Sequence record: OP745616
Length of the DNA stretch: 64,000 nucleotides
Reading direction: 5' to 3' (one strand)
From: Escherichia phage E20
Part shown: positions 1,498 to 34,720 of the stretch, in pieces
How the letters are laid out: every line of letters begins with the position of its first letter
How positions within the stretch are numbered: the first letter of the stretch is position 1
Made by a program: the position numbers and the translations under genes
Notes under the pieces: model-generated
What the model saw: only the letters and a program-made list of their open reading frames with translations
Databases searched by the model: none
Told to the model about the DNA's origin: nothing

Positions 1498-1602
1498 AAC
1501 TAGACGATAAGCTATTTCTACTTTTTGAGTATCTTTAGACGAAGGGTACTGAAACAGTAACCAGATAGATATAGATTTATATTAGATGAAGGAGTAACCA
1601 CT

Positions 1603-1899
1603 ATGCGTACATTATGTAACCGTTATAACTCACAAAAGTTGATTGATACGTTGCAACCTTGGGGTAGTAAGATGTCACTGAATGCTCGCTGGCAGGTAAG
1701 TGTAAAAGATGAAAACGGTCACTGCTATGACCACTTCTTTGTAACTAAACCTACTCGTAAACAAATCCGTAAACTTCACAATGTGCAAAAACATTACCTA
1801 TCACAAAAATGCTATGAGTGTGGTAAGAGAATAGAACTAGGTAAAGAATTTACTTTTGATGATCTCAACTATGCTCACACTGACTGCCTGAAAGGATAA
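1603..1899 (+). CDS. Hypothetical early protein with Cys/His pairs (possible zinc-binding), 98 aa
   Basis: RBS GAAGGAG upstream; CYDH...CYECGK...HTDC pattern. Confidence 0.55.
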   Translation: MRTLCNRYNSQKLIDTLQPWGSKMSLNARWQVSVKDENGHCYDHFFVTKPTRKQIRKLHNVQKHYLSQKCYECGKRIELGKEFTFDDLNYAHTDCLKG

Positions 1900-1903
1900 G
1901 ACT

Positions 1904-2122
1904 ATGCTGGACTTCATTGCGTTTGTAATACTCTGCTCTGTACTGTATCGCCTGCGTGGTTACATCCTCAATGGAGCCAAGTGGGTAAGAACTAAGTTGG
2001 TACTTATCTGTAAGTTACCCGTTGTATTCGTTAAGTGTCTGTTTGCTTCCATAGTAGCTAAAGAAGTTCGTAAGCAACTCTGGGCTAAAGAAGCAGAAGA
2101 GTTTGCAAAGAGGAACCAGTGA
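1904..2122 (+). CDS. Hypothetical small protein (72 aa)
   Basis: ORF in tight early operon. Confidence 0.4.
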   Translation: MLDFIAFVILCSVLYRLRGYILNGAKWVRTKLVLICKLPVVFVKCLFASIVAKEVRKQLWAKEAEEFAKRNQ

Positions 2123-2415
2123 TATTCACTAACATTGAGGATGCCATTGAAGAATGTATCTTCCGTAGATATCACACTGGAGTACAGAAGCGACACTATG
2201 GTGTTGTACAGCTCAATGGTTATCAAATGGCTGTAAGAATTGTACGTAACAATAAACCTTTTAACTTTATGTGGAGTACTAAACATGCGTAAGTCATTAA
2301 TCATGGGAACCAAAGCTGACGTACAGAAGATGAAAGAGCGTCTGGCTGCTAAGCAACAGACATCTGAACCAGTACGTAAGATTGTTACCTTCAACCATCC
2401 GTGCATAAAATAGTA

Positions 2416-2453
2416 AGGAGTCCTCCAATAGGAGGCTCCTATTTTTTATTTTT
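2416..2453 (+). terminator. Rho-independent terminator
   Basis: AGGAGTCCTCC-AATA-GGAGGCTCCT stem-loop then ATTTTTTATTTTT. Confidence 0.7.
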
Positions 2454-2490
2454 GAATAGTTAGTTATGTATTTAAATAGGAGAAAGAGCC

Positions 2491-2805
2491 TTGAATGAAA
2501 TAGTATGTATACTTCCTCACTTAGCTAAAGTAGCTGACAGGAATATACGGGTACATTTACCCTTCCCATTAAGTAATCCATTCACTCGTAATGAAAGAAC
2601 CACAGTAGAAGATATAGAGGTAGCTTATGAGGCTTATCTTCGTAATCGTCTTATTAGTGGTGACAAATTAATTACAGCAGAGATGGAAAGGATTGCATCC
2701 TTTGTCACAGATAGTACTAAGAAACCTGTTGGTTTAATTGGTACTGAATCTGATGTTAACGTTATTCGTAAAATATTAATGGAGGCTTTAGGTGAACAAC
2801 CTTAG
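2491..2805 (+). CDS. Hypothetical protein (104 aa)
   Basis: ORF; start codon uncertain. Confidence 0.4.
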   Translation: MNEIVCILPHLAKVADRNIRVHLPFPLSNPFTRNERTTVEDIEVAYEAYLRNRLISGDKLITAEMERIASFVTDSTKKPVGLIGTESDVNVIRKILMEALGEQP

Positions 2806-3025
2806 TGATGTAATAGTAGGTAATGAAATATTCGTTAACCGAAAAGGTTATGCACGAATTAAGCTAAAGAGTACTAACAGAACTATTGTTCGTAAGGTGT
2901 ACTCTAAACCTTTTAGTAATTTCTCTATTGATGAGGTGCGTATTAATAACAAAATGTACCTCATAGATAGTAAAGTATCTGTATGCCATACAGACGGTAA
3001 AACCTCACTTGAATATGCTTATTAA
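2792..3025 (+). CDS. Hypothetical protein (77 aa)
   Basis: ORF overlapping previous stop. Confidence 0.4.
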   Translation: MNNLSDVIVGNEIFVNRKGYARIKLKSTNRTIVRKVYSKPFSNFSIDEVRINNKMYLIDSKVSVCHTDGKTSLEYAY

Positions 3026-3037
3026 GGAATAAACAAA

Positions 3038-3259
3038 ATGTTGTTCAGCACTAATTATGGTATTTGCCCGATTTGCAATAAAGGAAGAGGAGTTGCTAAT
3101 CATAAGAAGTGTAGTCGTATCCTACAGAAACAACGGAACCAGGAAGAATGGGATAAGTTGTTAAATAATCAGCATAAAGAAGAGAACCAACAGATGGCTG
3201 TTAAGGCATCTACTCAACGTATTCGCCGTATTAACTATATACAGGGGTATCAGAAATGA
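3038..3259 (+). CDS. Hypothetical small protein with CxxC zinc-ribbon-like motif (73 aa)
   Basis: CPICNKG...HKKC pattern. Confidence 0.45.
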   Translation: MLFSTNYGICPICNKGRGVANHKKCSRILQKQRNQEEWDKLLNNQHKEENQQMAVKASTQRIRRINYIQGYQK

Positions 3260-10970: not shown

Positions 10971-12146
10971 ATGAACCAGATACCTCAGCACACACTTAGT
11001 GATGAACAACTCATGCGCGAGTATGACCGTATTCAGGCCCAAGCTTTCCTAGGCAAGTCTGCTGCGTTTTTTGGTTCATTGCTGTGTAGTCTTAAGTTCT
11101 CATGGAATCGTGAGGATTGCCCCACTGCATGTACTGACGGAATAGAACTCCATTTCAACCCAGACTTCTTTGTCTGGATGTGCCCTGATGCAAGAGAAAC
11201 AGTGCTAATGCACGAACTCTGGCATGTGGCATATCTACATGGCATCCGTTGTGGAAGCCGTGACCCGGAAGTCTGGAACCAGGCATGTGACCACTTCATT
11301 AACCTTCAGTTAGAAGAAGACGGTTACAAGTTCACTGGTATCGACAAAGGCATTTGCAAAGACCCTCAATATAAAGGATGGGTTGAAGAAGACATCTACG
11401 ATGACCTGATGAAGAACCCTCAGAAAAGGCAGAAGCCGTCAGGGGGTGCTGGAGCAGGTCTTGCTGGCGACATGAAAGCTCCCTCTTCGGGGCAGTCCCA
11501 GGGTGCTGTTGTCAACAACGTAGTACGTGCAATGCAAAGCCAGAAGATGGCTGGTGGAATAATGCCCGGTAAAGGTGCTGGTCGTATGGAAGAGGTTATT
11601 ACCCAATTCCTTAAACCAGTAGTTCCATGGCAGGAAGTCCTGCTGAACTTCTTTACCGACATTGATGACACACACTATACGTGGGCCAGACCTAACCGTC
11701 GTTTTACTGACATCTATCTACCATCACTGGAAGATGATGAAGGTCGTTTACGACACCTAGCTTACTTTGAGGATGTATCTGGTTCTATTAGTAATTCTGA
11801 CTCTCTGCGTTTTAACTCAGAGGTTGCCTACGTTAAGAGCCAGTTCAATCCTAAGAAGATGACCCTTATTACCTTCGACGATATTATCCAAGAAGAAATA
11901 GACATCACTGAAGAAGATACTTTTGAAGAGATTAAGATTACTGGTCGTGGTGGTACAAACCTTGAACCAGTGCGTGAATGGATTATTAAGAATAAGCCAA
12001 CCGCTGCAATCATATTCTCCGATATGTATGTTCGTCCTATGGAAGAATTACCATTTGATATCCCTATCATCTGGTGTGTTCTGAATAATCCCAATGCTAC
12101 CGTACCTTTTGGGGAGGTAGTTCATATCCCTAAAGGAATGAAATAA
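10971..12146 (+). CDS. vWA domain protein with N-terminal HExxH metal-binding module (N4 gp25-like), 391 aa
   Basis: HELWH motif; MIDAS DxSGS (FEDVSGSIS); ATG at 10971 directly after the ATPase stop (ORF track 10737 is an in-frame extension overlapping the ATPase gene). Confidence 0.6.
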   Translation: MNQIPQHTLSDEQLMREYDRIQAQAFLGKSAAFFGSLLCSLKFSWNREDCPTACTDGIELHFNPDFFVWMCPDARETVLMHELWHVAYLHGIRCGSRDPEVWNQACDHFINLQLEEDGYKFTGIDKGICKDPQYKGWVEEDIYDDLMKNPQKRQKPSGGAGAGLAGDMKAPSSGQSQGAVVNNVVRAMQSQKMAGGIMPGKGAGRMEEVITQFLKPVVPWQEVLLNFFTDIDDTHYTWARPNRRFTDIYLPSLEDDEGRLRHLAYFEDVSGSISNSDSLRFNSEVAYVKSQFNPKKMTLITFDDIIQEEIDITEEDTFEEIKITGRGGTNLEPVREWIIKNKPTAAIIFSDMYVRPMEELPFDIPIIWCVLNNPNATVPFGEVVHIPKGMK

Positions 12147-12652
12147 TGGTTGTTAATGGTAATTCTCTATACCGTTCATCTCAATTGCTGGACATCCCAG
12201 ACCATAAAGTATCCAAGCATGGTGTAAGTTATGGATTAGGTGAAGCCGGTTATGATATTCGTATCAAACAAGATATCACTTTCTATCGCTTATTCGGGTT
12301 GATTCCAATGGTGAAGACTGTCGATGCTGGGGTTGTTAAACGCCACTTCGGTAAATTCGCATTGGCTTCAGCAATTGAGAAGTTCAACATGTCCCCATCC
12401 TGTGTAGCTATCGTTCACGATAAGTCTACATGGGCAAGACGTGCATTATCAGTGTTCAATACTGTAATAGAACCAGGATGGAAAGGGTATCTTACTCTCG
12501 AACTGGTCTATCATGGTCGTAAGAAACTGCATATCCCGGCTGGTGCTGGGATAGCTCAAGTATTATTTCATCTGGTTCAAGAGCCTGCTAATTACAATGG
12601 CAAGTATCAGAACCAGGAAGACAAACCAGTATCTGCTAGACCTTCAAAATAA
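12146..12652 (+). CDS. dCTP deaminase/dUTPase-fold protein, 168 aa
   Basis: GYDIR ... EPGWKG pattern characteristic of the dCTP deaminase family. Confidence 0.6.
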   Translation: MVVNGNSLYRSSQLLDIPDHKVSKHGVSYGLGEAGYDIRIKQDITFYRLFGLIPMVKTVDAGVVKRHFGKFALASAIEKFNMSPSCVAIVHDKSTWARRALSVFNTVIEPGWKGYLTLELVYHGRKKLHIPAGAGIAQVLFHLVQEPANYNGKYQNQEDKPVSARPSK

Positions 12653-32389: not shown

Positions 32390-33394
32390 TCTGGTAGGTG
32401 GCTCAGAAGCTGCTGCTAGGTGTGGTAGTGTTTATAGTCCTGATGCTACTACTGGTCAGGATTATAGACGTGTCGGCTCCATACATAGCTTTTATCATCA
32501 CTGTCATTATCCTGTGGAAATGCAGTGGTAAACACGGTGGTGACAAGCCGCCAGAATAACAACAACCGAACCAGTGGATTGGAATACTCTCCCCAGTCCA
32601 TTGGTTCAATCGGGGTTACTATGAACAAATTTACTATTCACTGGCTCAATGGAAAGGTTAGTTCTTTCATGGGTGGAGAACCTGCTGAAGGAAGCATTGA
32701 AAAAGAGTAGTTAATATCGTGAAGGGTTCTGTTAGAATCTTTTGAGATAGGAACTCCTATCATAACCTTTCTTAACTTAATCTTTGCCGTATGGCACTGA
32801 CGCTAGGGGTGGCCCCCCATCCGTCAGACAGACTATTTTAAGAATGGGTTATCTCAGAAAATGTAAAGCAACATTCGGGTTAATCAATGGCCTCTCCTAT
32901 AGGGGCCATTTCTGAATCTTAGGCTATATCCCAAAGGTTAGTATCTTTGGGATAAGGCTTCAGATCCCTTATCAAACTAACCGCTCATGTTGAGCATATT
33001 AATTAACCCAGCCCACTAAGGGGGCGGGAGTTTAATGCCGGTAAGCATAAGCCTATCCGACTACAACATCGAACTGTTAGGTCTTACATGCAACATAGGG
33101 TATAAAGGGAGGATTCGTCCCCTCCCTCCTATTATGAACTACCGGAGAGTGCATTAGTTGATTAGCTGTGGAAGGTAGGCCGATGTCCACAAGCGTGGCC
33201 CAGAGCTAGTGTACTCCCCGATAGTTTTCGTAGCGATTATGCGGTTTTTTAGAAACGAACCAATAACATAAATGCAAACGAAGAAGCGTATCTGATGGTC
33301 GCCTAACAGCGTAACCTCAGTCAGGAGTGAGTCGTCCTGATTATCAAACGACCATGGAGTTCTCCCGTCCATGTATTAGAAACGGGGGGCCAAT

Positions 33395-33518
33395 TACCAG
33401 TTGCACGAGATGGCTTGACATGCTCAAGTTTGGACTAAGTGTGACACCGCTAGATTGGAGGGCTGCTGCGGTAAGCTATAGACTCCAACCGGAGGTTCGA
33501 ATCCTTCACTGGTAACCA
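33395..33518 (+). ncRNA. tRNA-like 3' domain (T-arm GGAGG-TTCGAAT-CCTTC, acceptor 3' strand, encoded ACCA); 5' boundary unresolved
   Basis: Canonical T-arm at 33491-33507 followed by ACTGGTA-A-CCA; only perfect acceptor complement TACCAGT is 120 nt upstream at 33395-33401. Confidence 0.25.
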
Positions 33519-33522
33519 ATCA

Positions 33523-33630
33523 GAAGTAGCACTGCATAGAACGCGAAAAGGTTCAGCGACGTTAGCCATACGGTATTGTAAGGTTCGAGTCCTTACCTAT
33601 GAGCAGTGACGACTGCAACAGTGCTACTTC
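33523..33630 (+). ncRNA. Structured element: 12-nt inverted repeat GAAGTAGCACTG/CAGTGCTACTTC enclosing a T-arm-like hairpin (TAAGG-TTCGAGT-CCTTA)
   Basis: Inverted repeat at 33523-33534 and 33619-33630; T-arm-like at 33579-33595; no acceptor stem could be paired. Confidence 0.25.
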
Positions 33631-33646
33631 TAATTGGAATAAATAT

Positions 33647-33724
33647 TGTGGGTGAGCATACGGTTATGCTACAGGCTTCCACACCTGTATGTGAAGTGAG
33701 GTTCAACTCCTCCGCCTGCAACCA
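33647..33724 (+). tRNA. tRNA-like gene with encoded CCA; anticodon loop non-canonical by hand fold (8-nt loop CTTCCACA)
   Basis: Acceptor TGTGGGT/GCCTGCA (7 bp, 3 G-U), D-arm GCAT..ATGC, anticodon stem ACAGG/CCTGT, T-arm TGAGG-TTCAACT-CCTCC, ACCA 3' end. Confidence 0.4.
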
Positions 33725-34291
33725 AACAATGGGGGTAAGTCGTAAATACGACGGCGTAAGTACCAGATGAAACCTCTGGACGCCCCTACCATATTTGAGA
33801 TGTAACAGTTAAATCCGTACCCGGAAGTGCTATTCTAGATACGCTGCCAATGTGGAGACGGTAAGGCTGTACAGGACTCGGACTCCCATCTCAAACCAAA
33901 GTCGCCAGGTACTTATGGCAAACGGGTAGTAACGAACTAGTCATTCGTCAAACGCCCACCTAATTATGAGTCAGCAAGAACGCCTTCACTTAAACTTAAA
34001 CAAAAAAGCTTAACGCAATAATTATGTAGGGGTATGTAAGGATTGCGAAGAAGGAGCCAGTTAGAGCCTGGCATGACTCACCTAATATGAGCACGTCTAA
34101 TCATCCTGGTTAAGCAGTAGCTAATTACTTATTGCTGTAAAATGAACTACTTAATATAGTTCTTCAGATACAGAGTAACTTGGTTGGATGGGGTAGGTAT
34201 CCTGCCCCTGCTCATTCTATTATAGGTAGCTCGTACTAGTTACGAGGCAGTCAATCTGTGGCAGTGTAAGGCTGCCCTACCCTTTCATTAA

Positions 34292-34364
34292 TACCCGGTA
34301 GGCTTAGTGGCAAAGCCCCACTAGTAAACTAACTAGGACGCAGGTTCGAATCCTGCCCGGGTAA
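34292..34364 (+). tRNA. tRNA-like gene; canonical acceptor, D and T arms, but anticodon loop folds as 6 nt
   Basis: Perfect 7-bp acceptor TACCCGG/CCGGGTA, D-arm GGCT-TAGTGGCAA-AGCC, T-arm GCAGG-TTCGAAT-CCTGC; anticodon stem CTAGT/ACTAG with loop AAACTA. Confidence 0.45.
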
Positions 34365-34373
34365 TCATACTAT

Positions 34374-34447
34374 GTCCACTTAGCTTAGACTGGGAAAGCA
34401 ACCGACTAATAATCGGAAGGTCACTGGTTCAAATCCAGTAGTGGACA
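34374..34447 (+). tRNA. tRNA, anticodon AAT by hand fold (would read Ile codons if A34 modified); needs tRNAscan confirmation
   Basis: Perfect 7-bp acceptor GTCCACT/AGTGGAC, D-arm GCTT-AGACTGGGA-AAGC, anticodon arm ACCGA-CTAATAA-TCGGA (C32 U33 ... A37 A38), T-arm ACTGG-TTCAAAT-CCAGT. Confidence 0.55.
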
Positions 34448-34683
34448 CCCATTCAGCAGTAACATAGTCCTGATTGCATAGCACTCTAAAGACAACACTG
34501 GTAAGACAGTCCAGTGGCTGCTAATGTATTGTTATTCCCCTCGACGGGAATTTCGCTAGTGAAGGTAACACTTAAAAATCCAAACCTACGTCTTACTACT
34601 ATCGGGCTATCAACCCACGGTCGCTTAACCCACTAGTGGTAGTAGTTTGACGGCCTGCCTCGTTGACTGCGTTAAAGTCACTA

Positions 34684-34720
34684 AGTCCCCTGGAGCCGTC
34701 ACTCTGGGGGACTTTTTTAT
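34684..34720 (+). terminator. Rho-independent terminator closing the tRNA-like region
   Basis: GTCCCC ... GGGGGAC stem then TTTTTTATTT. Confidence 0.6.

Follow-up and report, generated by a model that had tools for sequence, protein, structure and literature searches.

The DNA analysed here (the window, 64,000 nucleotides, sequence record OP745616) comes from Escherichia phage E20, an N4-like coliphage of the genus Gamaleyavirus (Schitoviridae). It contains a stretch of about 2 kb, roughly 32740-34720, in which open reading frames (ORFs) are no longer than 72 amino acids. The genes nearby are small hypothetical ORFs, the SSB-side genes, downstream of which the stretch lies, and the convergently transcribed virion RNA polymerase gene, which is preceded by the small genes that follow the stretch. 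On its + strand the stretch houses the element described here, a long stem (P1) formed by an inverted repeat and enclosing a domain shaped like transfer RNA (tRNA). A gene resembling transfer-messenger RNA (tmRNA) and further tRNA-like modules lie in the same stretch, which we refer to as the RNA array. The features are listed in Table 1.

The long stem P1 and its tRNA-shaped interior

An earlier reading made from the sequence alone had noted a 12-nt repeat, GAAGTAGCACTG (33523-33534), and its exact reverse complement, CAGTGCTACTTC (33619-33630), enclosing about 84 nt with a T-arm-like hairpin. Both positions were confirmed, and the repeat proved to be part of longer arms. Exact complementarity extends over 13 nt (33522-33534 / 33619-33631), and the complete arms, CCAATCAGAAGTAGCACTG (33516-33534) and CAGTGCTACTTCTAATTGG (33619-33637), are 19 nt long and form 18 pairs with one C.A mismatch; 84 nt were measured between them. 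An exact 12-mer repeat is by itself unremarkable, since 0.77 inverted repeats of this kind within 150 nt are expected per dinucleotide-shuffled window and 49% of shuffles contain at least one. The 18/19 stem, on the other hand, is the longest Watson-Crick inverted repeat of the 64-kb window and the sole one with 16 or more pairs, no more than one mismatch and a loop of up to 120 nt; we estimate its chance expectation at approximately 0.002. The + strand folds at -48.9 kcal/mol (z = -6.3 relative to shuffles), so that the fold is favoured beyond chance, which the sequence-only reading had left to be checked. The minus strand is nearly as stable, and thermodynamics therefore cannot separate the strands. 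One other exact 12-nt inverted repeat within 150 nt is present in the window, at 12044-12055 (AGAATTACCATT) and 12155-12166 (AATGGTAATTCT); a chance match is expected at such a length.

The T-arm-like hairpin is present inside the stem (GTAAGG-TTCGAGT-CCTTAC, 33578-33596). The acceptor stem that the sequence-only reading could not find has a counterpart in a 5-bp acceptor-like helix, P2, which abuts the T-arm (CATAG 33535-39 / CTATG 33597-601). The strands follow each other in cloverleaf order: acceptor-like strand, D-like arm, anticodon-like arm, variable region, T-arm, acceptor-like strand. The T-loop consensus of tRNA (GUUCRANYC) and the D-loop GG that makes the elbow contact are both found, as GG-UUCGAGU-CC and within GAAAAGGUUCA. 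The element has no 7-bp acceptor stem, free 5′ end or 3′ NCCA; instead, the 5-bp helix runs into P1. On the 3′ side P2 is followed by A, a 14-nt hairpin (P3), AA and then P1, so that three unpaired bases flank P3 and there is no CCA. The anticodon-like arm occurs as two alleles, 3 bp with the loop UAGCCAU, or, in relatives, 5 bp with the 5-nt loop YAAAC. A tRNA would have a 5-bp stem and a 7-nt loop with U33, and here either position 33 is A or the loop has five nucleotides.

ARAGORN made no call on the element at its default setting, and an unconvincing ‘tRNA-Leu(cag)’ over 33520-33604 at an 80% threshold. Rfam searches of the window, of a 2.5-kb region and of the 136-nt element (33510-33645) matched no family on the element, not even tRNA, tmRNA or YrlA, at either the gathering or the E≤10 threshold. 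The element is not a tRNA, and the Rfam result agrees with what the sequence-only reading had claimed in this respect. The hallmarks of tmRNA, G3.U70 and a terminal ACCA, are likewise absent: the acceptor-like pairs are C-G, A-U, U-A, A-U and G-C, so that 3:70 would be A-U, and no Rfam tmRNA model gave a match overlapping 33516-33637.

The full element was found in 12 of the 178 phage records that match the 2.1 kb around it, including that of Salmonella phage TR2 (genus Triduovirus), as well as in two viral contigs and five metagenome contigs. D-arm, T-arm and gapped-pattern searches of IMG/VR yielded two true copies among chance matches, and a metagenome scan gave 74 matches, five of which were confirmed by a covariance model. 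A T-arm pattern search of one genome for each of 185,579 species (GTDB) gave no copies, and no counterpart of the element was detected in 5,426 E. coli genomes.

Ten homologous copies, TR2 included, were aligned and analysed with RNAalifold, which predicted six helices with 39 pairs in total; in 14 of these pairs both partners had changed. Paired cells amounted to 98.7%, and none of 500 shuffles reached any of five measures. In controls with the partners slid by 1-3 columns, 24-46% of cells were paired and compensatory pairs numbered 0-2. P1 comprises 17-18 bp across the copies. Compensatory changes were observed in every helix except the D-like one, which is invariant, and the TR2 copy retains all of its helices through such changes (its P2 is CACAG/CUGUG). 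Overall identity across the two phage genera is about 85%; the D- and T-loop residues are invariant, including the GG of the D-loop and the GGUUCGA of the T-loop in all ten copies. Repeat and fold are thus kept in related phages, as the sequence-only reading had suggested should be examined. This conservation and the compensatory changes show that an RNA structure on the + strand is under selection.

The assignment to the + strand rests on the interior helices, on the homologous helix Frame 1 described below and on context. The interior helices contain G.U variants that pair only on the + strand, and the T-loop motif, flanking genes, neighbouring tRNAs, promoter match and terminator all have this orientation. 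A strand call from the wobble pairs of P1 alone was rejected.

A frame helix with interchangeable interiors

A covariance model built from the element matched phage PBM-3 at 35 bits through the arms only; the PBM-3 interior, approximately 40 nt, is unrelated. BLAST with the PBM-3 version returned 53 records, and the twelve of these that were inspected contained at least four further interiors, of 38-52 nt, between near-identical arms. The shared arms read (CC)AAUUCAAAGUAGCAYUG / CAGUGCUACUYUGAAUU(GG), and one group of arms carries a compensatory swap from CACUG/CAGUG to CACUC/GAGUG. These loci identify P1 as a ‘frame’ that is conserved in many more relatives than hold the tRNA-like domain and that carries unrelated interiors there. 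Where the module upstream of P1 is present, the P1 arm always follows directly after its terminal ...ACCA. The interior of PhAPEC7 has a weak likeness to a rearranged, partly inverted piece of the element's interior, or cargo. As 13 of 500 shuffles score as high, an inverted cargo copy in PhAPEC7 was treated as borderline and is not relied on.

A second, homologous long helix, Frame 1, was found in each Gamaleyavirus locus examined, with variable interiors of its own. Its arms follow the pattern CUAUC(GG/AA)NGAGURCAYU.. / ..AGUGYACUC(CC/UU)..GAUAG, and in the window they form 22 pairs, four of them G.U, with two mismatches. Among relatives, GG/CC is replaced by AA/UU in a compensatory manner, and up to 7 of 23 pairs are G.U. 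Cargo moves among frames: in TR2 the tRNA-like cargo is held in a Frame-1-type stem, and phages AN24P2, HK2 and pSb-1 have a 63-nt interior in near-identical arms; the frame of U1G is very similar.

The stem sequence AGURGCAYUG/CAGUGCUACU is kept across paralogous frames, and frame-like hairpins with GAGCAYU.. / ..GUGCUC arms are also present in IME11 and in the unrelated siphovirus Bas77. A stem sequence shared by paralogous frames, with similar arms in a siphovirus, is a hint that the helix may be recognised in a sequence-specific manner.

The tmRNA-like gene and the RNA array

P1 starts exactly on the CCA of module A, the tRNA-like domain of a tmRNA-like gene, and Frame 1 ends exactly at the start of the tag leader of the same gene, so that two homologous helices bracket it. 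In other, unrelated phages, both places are taken by long hairpins of unrelated sequence. About 210 nt separate the tag stop codon from the start of the element 3′ of it in the window, and module A lies in this interval; in TR2 the element adjoins the tag. No tag module was found by blastn in the fetched locus stretch of four cargo-carrying phages.

Several observations indicate that the tag frame, of a kind widespread among phages of enterobacteria, is real. The relatives' tag ANDDVVLMAA has alleles that differ only at synonymous third positions (GUU/GUC/GUA; GCA/GCG; GCC/GCG/GCU), and other phages have the tags ANDNVFLAVA and ANDNTFLAVA. An overlapping AUG frame is not conserved, and the hairpin after the tag stop covaries. 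The acceptor of module A, which carries C3-G70, also covaries, with TACCAGT/ACTGGTA in 11 copies, TATCAGT/ACTGATA in three, and two G.U variants. The corresponding domain of Felixounavirus adrianh (CGGGGCG / CGCCUCG-A-CCA) has G3.U70 and A73, the alanine identity set. A core of about 150 nt is present in 676 phage records from very different families, among them Kuttervirus, Felixounavirus, siphoviruses of 46-60 kb and Klebsiella phages; the records listed do not annotate it, and only 2 of the 185,579 species genomes contain it. The gene order in phages with the core is promoter, leader, tag, hairpin and pseudoknot region, and a complete tRNA-like domain with ACCA at its end. Their 5′ acceptor strand is internal, an order that corresponds to neither the standard nor the known permuted one.

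The tmRNA-like gene was not called by default ARAGORN or at the Rfam gathering thresholds. The tag was reported by relaxed ARAGORN, and the Rfam permuted-tmRNA models align Frame 1 and the tag at 23-40 bits, below the curated threshold. Several of the relaxed ARAGORN tmRNA calls are mutually exclusive; one of standard order, 33036-33518, was rejected because its 5′ strand, TGCCGGT, does not track the 3′ strand, which the local TACCAGT does. The literature searched contained no account of this RNA region from G7C-like phages and none of a coliphage tmRNA. A tmRNA database paper counts 79 unique phage sequences.

From the promoter-like site to the strong terminator the RNA array appears, from its sequence signals, to form one transcription unit. 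Its conserved block starts at 32740; in the PhAPEC7 locus the annotated terminator lies further 3′. Comparison of window blocks with 21 related loci by blastn revealed a presence/absence mosaic. In nearly all of the Gamaleyavirus loci compared the first three blocks recur (the third often only in part), as do one block in mid-array and the block next to the terminator; the intervening blocks come and go. The tRNA-like modules are joined by a recurring ...NCCA-AU-(+1), such that the next module begins 2 nt past the preceding CCA. The array includes a gene for tRNA-Ile(AAU) and an odd tRNA whose anticodon loop has 6 nt, and the only default ARAGORN calls in the region are 34292-34364 and 34373-34451. 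The first of these, the odd gene, ends in ..GGGUAAUCA in the window and in AACCA in PBM-3; ARAGORN reports it as ‘tRNA-???’ and it is annotated as tRNA-OTHER or tRNA-Thr in relatives. The tRNA-like RNA at about 33646-33724 is confined to a few relatives (Bas96, K57alpha1.2, NAN33P5).

Protein coding by the array was considered and rejected, given ORFs of at most 72 amino acids and modules that form a presence/absence mosaic. The Bas96 record (1585-3081 of the fetched locus) contains nine small ‘hypothetical protein’ coding sequences of 29-70 amino acids, on both strands, which overlap tRNA-like RNAs and the element; these annotations across the Bas96 array are probably overcalls.

Table 1. Positions of the element, its parts and neighbouring features in the window, and of related features in other loci (prefix L)
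Feature	Position	Strand	Remarks
P1 5′ arm CCAAUCAGAAGUAGCACUG	33516..33534	+	begins with the CCA that ends the tRNA-like domain upstream
P2 5′ strand CAUAG (acceptor-like helix)	33535..33539	+	contiguous with P1 on the 5′ strand
D-arm-like hairpin	33542..33558	+	CGC / GCG stem, 11-nt loop GAAAAGGUUCA; stem and GG invariant in 10/10 copies
Stunted anticodon-like hairpin CGU-UAGCCAU-ACG	33560..33572	+	G-C / A-U / G.U variants
T-arm, 6-bp stem GUAAGG/CCUUAC, T-loop UUCGAGU	33578..33596	+	A-U to G-C swap in 5/10 copies
P2 3′ strand CUAUG	33597..33601	+	from the ten-copy alignment
P3 hairpin GCAGU-GACG-ACUGC	33603..33616	+	between P2 and the P1 3′ arm; G-C to A-U in TR2
P1 3′ arm CAGUGCUACUUCUAAUUGG	33619..33637	+	from the inverted repeat and the alignment of copies
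Frame 1, arms 33136-33159 / 33204-33227	33136..33227	+	44-nt pseudoknot-like interior; directly 5′ of the tag leader
tmRNA-like gene, whole	33228-33518	+	leader, resume codon GCA, 10-codon tag, post-stop hairpin, pseudoknot-like hairpins, tRNA-like domain
Tag frame GCA AAC GAA GAA GCG UAU CUG AUG GUC GCC UAA (ANEEAYLMVA*)	33274..33306	+	without start codon; preceded by ...CAUAAAU
tRNA-like domain, module A	33395..33518	+	7-bp acceptor UACCAGU/ACUGGUA, T-arm GGAGG-UUCGAAU-CCUUC, discriminator A, CCA
sigma70-like promoter, extended -10 (TTAATA-16-TGnTAGAAT)	32711..32738	+	consensus match only; start of the RNA array
tRNA-like RNA ending ..GCAACCA	33646-33724 (approx.)		G.U-rich acceptor stem; weak tRNA-Sec match, 33.5 bits against a threshold of 47
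Odd tRNA-like gene	34292-34364		acceptor, D arm and T arm all good; 40 bits with Rfam tRNA; 6-nt anticodon loop (CUAGU-AAACUA-ACUAG)
Intrinsic terminator, 13-bp stem then T-run	34683..34714	+	strong; end of the RNA array
Frame-like long hairpins, arms GGUAAGAGCAUU.. / ..(A/G)UGCUCUU	L208:1225-1300 (Bas77, 46-kb siphovirus); L007:866-941, L006:759-839 (Gamaleyaviruses IME11, PD205)		3′ of the tag module
Further tmRNA-like loci	L206:860-1150, L207:890-1180, L107:1440-1875, L011:1313-1480		

Relation to known RNAs and possible function

The closest known architecture, by analogy, appears to be that of the bacterial Y RNAs, Yrn1 in particular. As in Yrn1 of D. radiodurans, where a long basal helix is combined with the order D, anticodon-like arm (loop not of 7 nt) and T (PMC4201824), and as in YrlA (Rfam RF02553), a basal helix made from the 5′ and 3′ regions bears a tRNA-like module with mimics of the D- and T-arms and without a free CCA. 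In contrast to these RNAs, P1 has no Ro/Rsr-binding motif of the GNCGAAN0-1G or GGUCCGA type (motif from PMC4201824). The sole CGAA in the element, within CGCGAAAAGG, lies in the D-like arm and does not fit the Ro motif, and the 5′ strand of P1, CCAAUCAGAAGUAGCACUG, is without it. The order in YrlA is also different (T, acceptor hairpin, D), and the genes for YrlA have an rsr (TROVE) gene no more than 4 kb away, of which none is known here. The only YrlA match, 18 bits at 34334-34401, lies over true tRNAs. As both the Ro motif and an Rfam match are absent, we do not class the element as a Y RNA.

With tRNA (RF00005) the element shares the T-loop UUCGAGU closed by G-C, the GG of the D-like loop, the cloverleaf order and a site in a phage tRNA cluster; it differs in its 5-bp acceptor-like helix, its 6-bp T stem and P3 on the 3′ side, and it has no CCA, free ends or 7-nt anticodon loop with U33. 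The permuted tmRNA domain (RF04321, RF01849-51) likewise has a long helix around a T-arm-bearing domain, and in TR2 the element immediately precedes a resume codon and a tag of ten codons; the element's neighbourhood also has pseudoknot-like hairpins 3′ of the tag, as in tmRNA. Unlike tmRNA, the element has neither G3.U70 nor an ACCA end, its acceptor strands have no intervening sequence between them, its helix leaves from the acceptor end, and element and tag apparently can each occur without the other. In the Rfam tmRNA_permuted model, base pairs are present only in the tRNA domain (PMC11915505). Matching no Rfam family, and described in no paper among the literature searched, the element was classed as a variant tRNA mimic set in a modular helix. 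The region around it may prove more important than the element itself.

Hairpins processed by RNase III are known from polycistronic phage transcripts, such as the R1.1-type sites of T7, and RNase III acts in the tRNA cluster of T4 and on its species 1 RNA; the T4 cluster also encodes stable small RNAs without an assigned function. Like these hairpins, the element has an imperfect helix of about 20 bp and lies, in a virulent coliphage, between functional RNAs of what appears to be a single transcript. Unlike them, it bears at the top of its helix not a small loop but a large domain that is conserved and structured.

Our preferred reading, to which we give a probability of about 0.45, is that the long stem serves processing or marks a boundary, and that the domain it carries is a tRNA mimic that does not decode and is under selection. 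That the stem has a role in processing is plausible. P1, at 18-19 bp, would act as a double-stranded boundary or processing element within the RNA array. RNase III substrates have about two turns of double-stranded RNA; P1 has 18 pairs in 19 positions, and P2 is contiguous with it on the 5′ strand. A helix of about 19 bp with a second one contiguous on one strand makes RNase III the obvious host enzyme, and it would be the most likely to cut P1. Such cleavage would part the array into its individual RNAs, set the 3′ boundary of the tRNA-like RNA upstream and free the cargo. As the cargo cannot decode or be charged as it stands, it is most likely a tRNA mimic, and once released it would most likely bind a factor that recognises the elbow or top half of tRNA.

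Several observations weigh against this proposal. Cutting by RNase III is suggested by helix length alone, and we know of no binding partner of the mimic. The likeness to tRNA is partial, with helices of 5 + 6 bp in place of 7 + 5, A instead of U8, and no Rfam tRNA score. A.C mismatches are frequent in the middle of P1 and would read as G.U pairs on the opposite strand, so that P1 by itself does not settle the strand. The cargo, being patchy (12/178 related records) and replaceable, would also fit a dispensable passenger.

The last point keeps alive the reading that the helix is the functional unit, a processing or insulating hairpin, and its interior a captured tRNA gene in functionless decay. 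Unrelated sequences take the place of the interior in the same frame, the anticodon arm is degenerate with two very different alleles, and the weak PhAPEC7 likeness would fit as well. A decaying pseudogene should gather changes that break its helices, however, and the compensatory changes in four of the five interior helices (the fifth, the D-like stem, being invariant), together with loops that are invariant over two genera at about 85% identity, weaken this reading, which we regard as unlikely though a serious contender. Another reading is an unusual but real tRNA, or a precursor with paired leader and trailer, that is matured and charged. Such a gene would explain the canonical T-loop, the D-like arm with GG, a possible A15:U48 pair, the cloverleaf order and the ‘tRNA-Leu(cag)’ call at the 80% threshold. 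It is the least credible of the readings considered, in view of the missing default ARAGORN call and Rfam tRNA score, the aberrant anticodon arm, the 5-bp acceptor-like helix, the lack of an encoded CCA, and the 14-nt hairpin and three unpaired bases that occupy the expected 3′ end. The sequence-only reading had favoured a structured RNA or a recombination or processing site over a tRNA. The compensatory changes bear out the structured RNA, and the ARAGORN and Rfam results with the missing CCA bear out its non-tRNA nature. The suggestion of a recombination site is not supported. The difference in cargo between phages with identical arms, and its shifts between frames, indicate that recombination at or near the arms has occurred, and PhAPEC7 may hold an inverted fragment. 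An element acting as DNA, whether as a site of recombination, inversion or cruciform formation or as the termini of a miniature mobile element with tRNA-derived DNA, would nevertheless leave unexplained why the arms covary to preserve pairing even across genera, and why interior G.U pairs are tolerated only on the + strand; the G.U pairs of Frame 1, as many as 7 in 23, would be mismatched if the element acted as DNA or from the minus strand. Target-site duplications and a transposase were absent, and no copies were present in the rest of the window or in the E. coli or GTDB species genomes. A purely DNA-level role is therefore very unlikely.

The cargo might instead belong to the phage tmRNA-like system, either as the tRNA-like partner of the tag RNA in a two-piece molecule joined by P1, or as a decoy that titrates SmpB. 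In TR2 the element is directly 5′ of the tag leader and is, on reading the sequence, the only T-arm-bearing domain seen between the upstream coding sequence and the terminator. The layout of a long helix around a tRNA-like domain, followed by resume codon and tag, parallels permuted tmRNA genes, and the 23-40-bit alignments of the tmRNA_permuted model point the same way. An RNA of mycobacteriophage DS6A consisting only of a tRNA-like domain has been reported to inhibit tmRNA (PMC4131195). This assignment is at odds with the A-U at 3:70 and the missing CCA and free 3′ end, with the closed cloverleaf of standard rather than permuted order, from which P1 leaves at the acceptor end and not on the anticodon side, with the four cargo phages in which blastn detected no tag module, and with module A, which already supplies a tRNA-like domain after the tag in the window. 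We consider it improbable. The same degree of doubt attaches to a wider conjecture, in which the cargo would be a working part of an undescribed phage trans-translation system; in lineages without the 3′ domain, such as TR2, the cloverleaf would supply the tRNA-like or SmpB-binding function, or else antagonise host tmRNA-SmpB, and the frame helices would be a modular scaffold for swapping RNA effectors.

In dozens of genomes of therapeutic-candidate coliphages the annotation of this region shows nothing, or only very small hypothetical ORFs; in reality it is a dense array of structured RNAs. The element adds to these a tRNA mimic of unusual build, a cloverleaf closed within a long helix and most like bacterial Y RNA, and brings to light a conserved helix that carries interchangeable RNA domains. 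Possible uses of such RNAs are as processing signals, as decoys for tRNA-binding enzymes or defence nucleases, or in tampering with ribosome rescue. Together with the neighbouring phage-specific tmRNA-like gene, the element makes the use of non-decoding tRNA-like RNAs by virulent phages testable.

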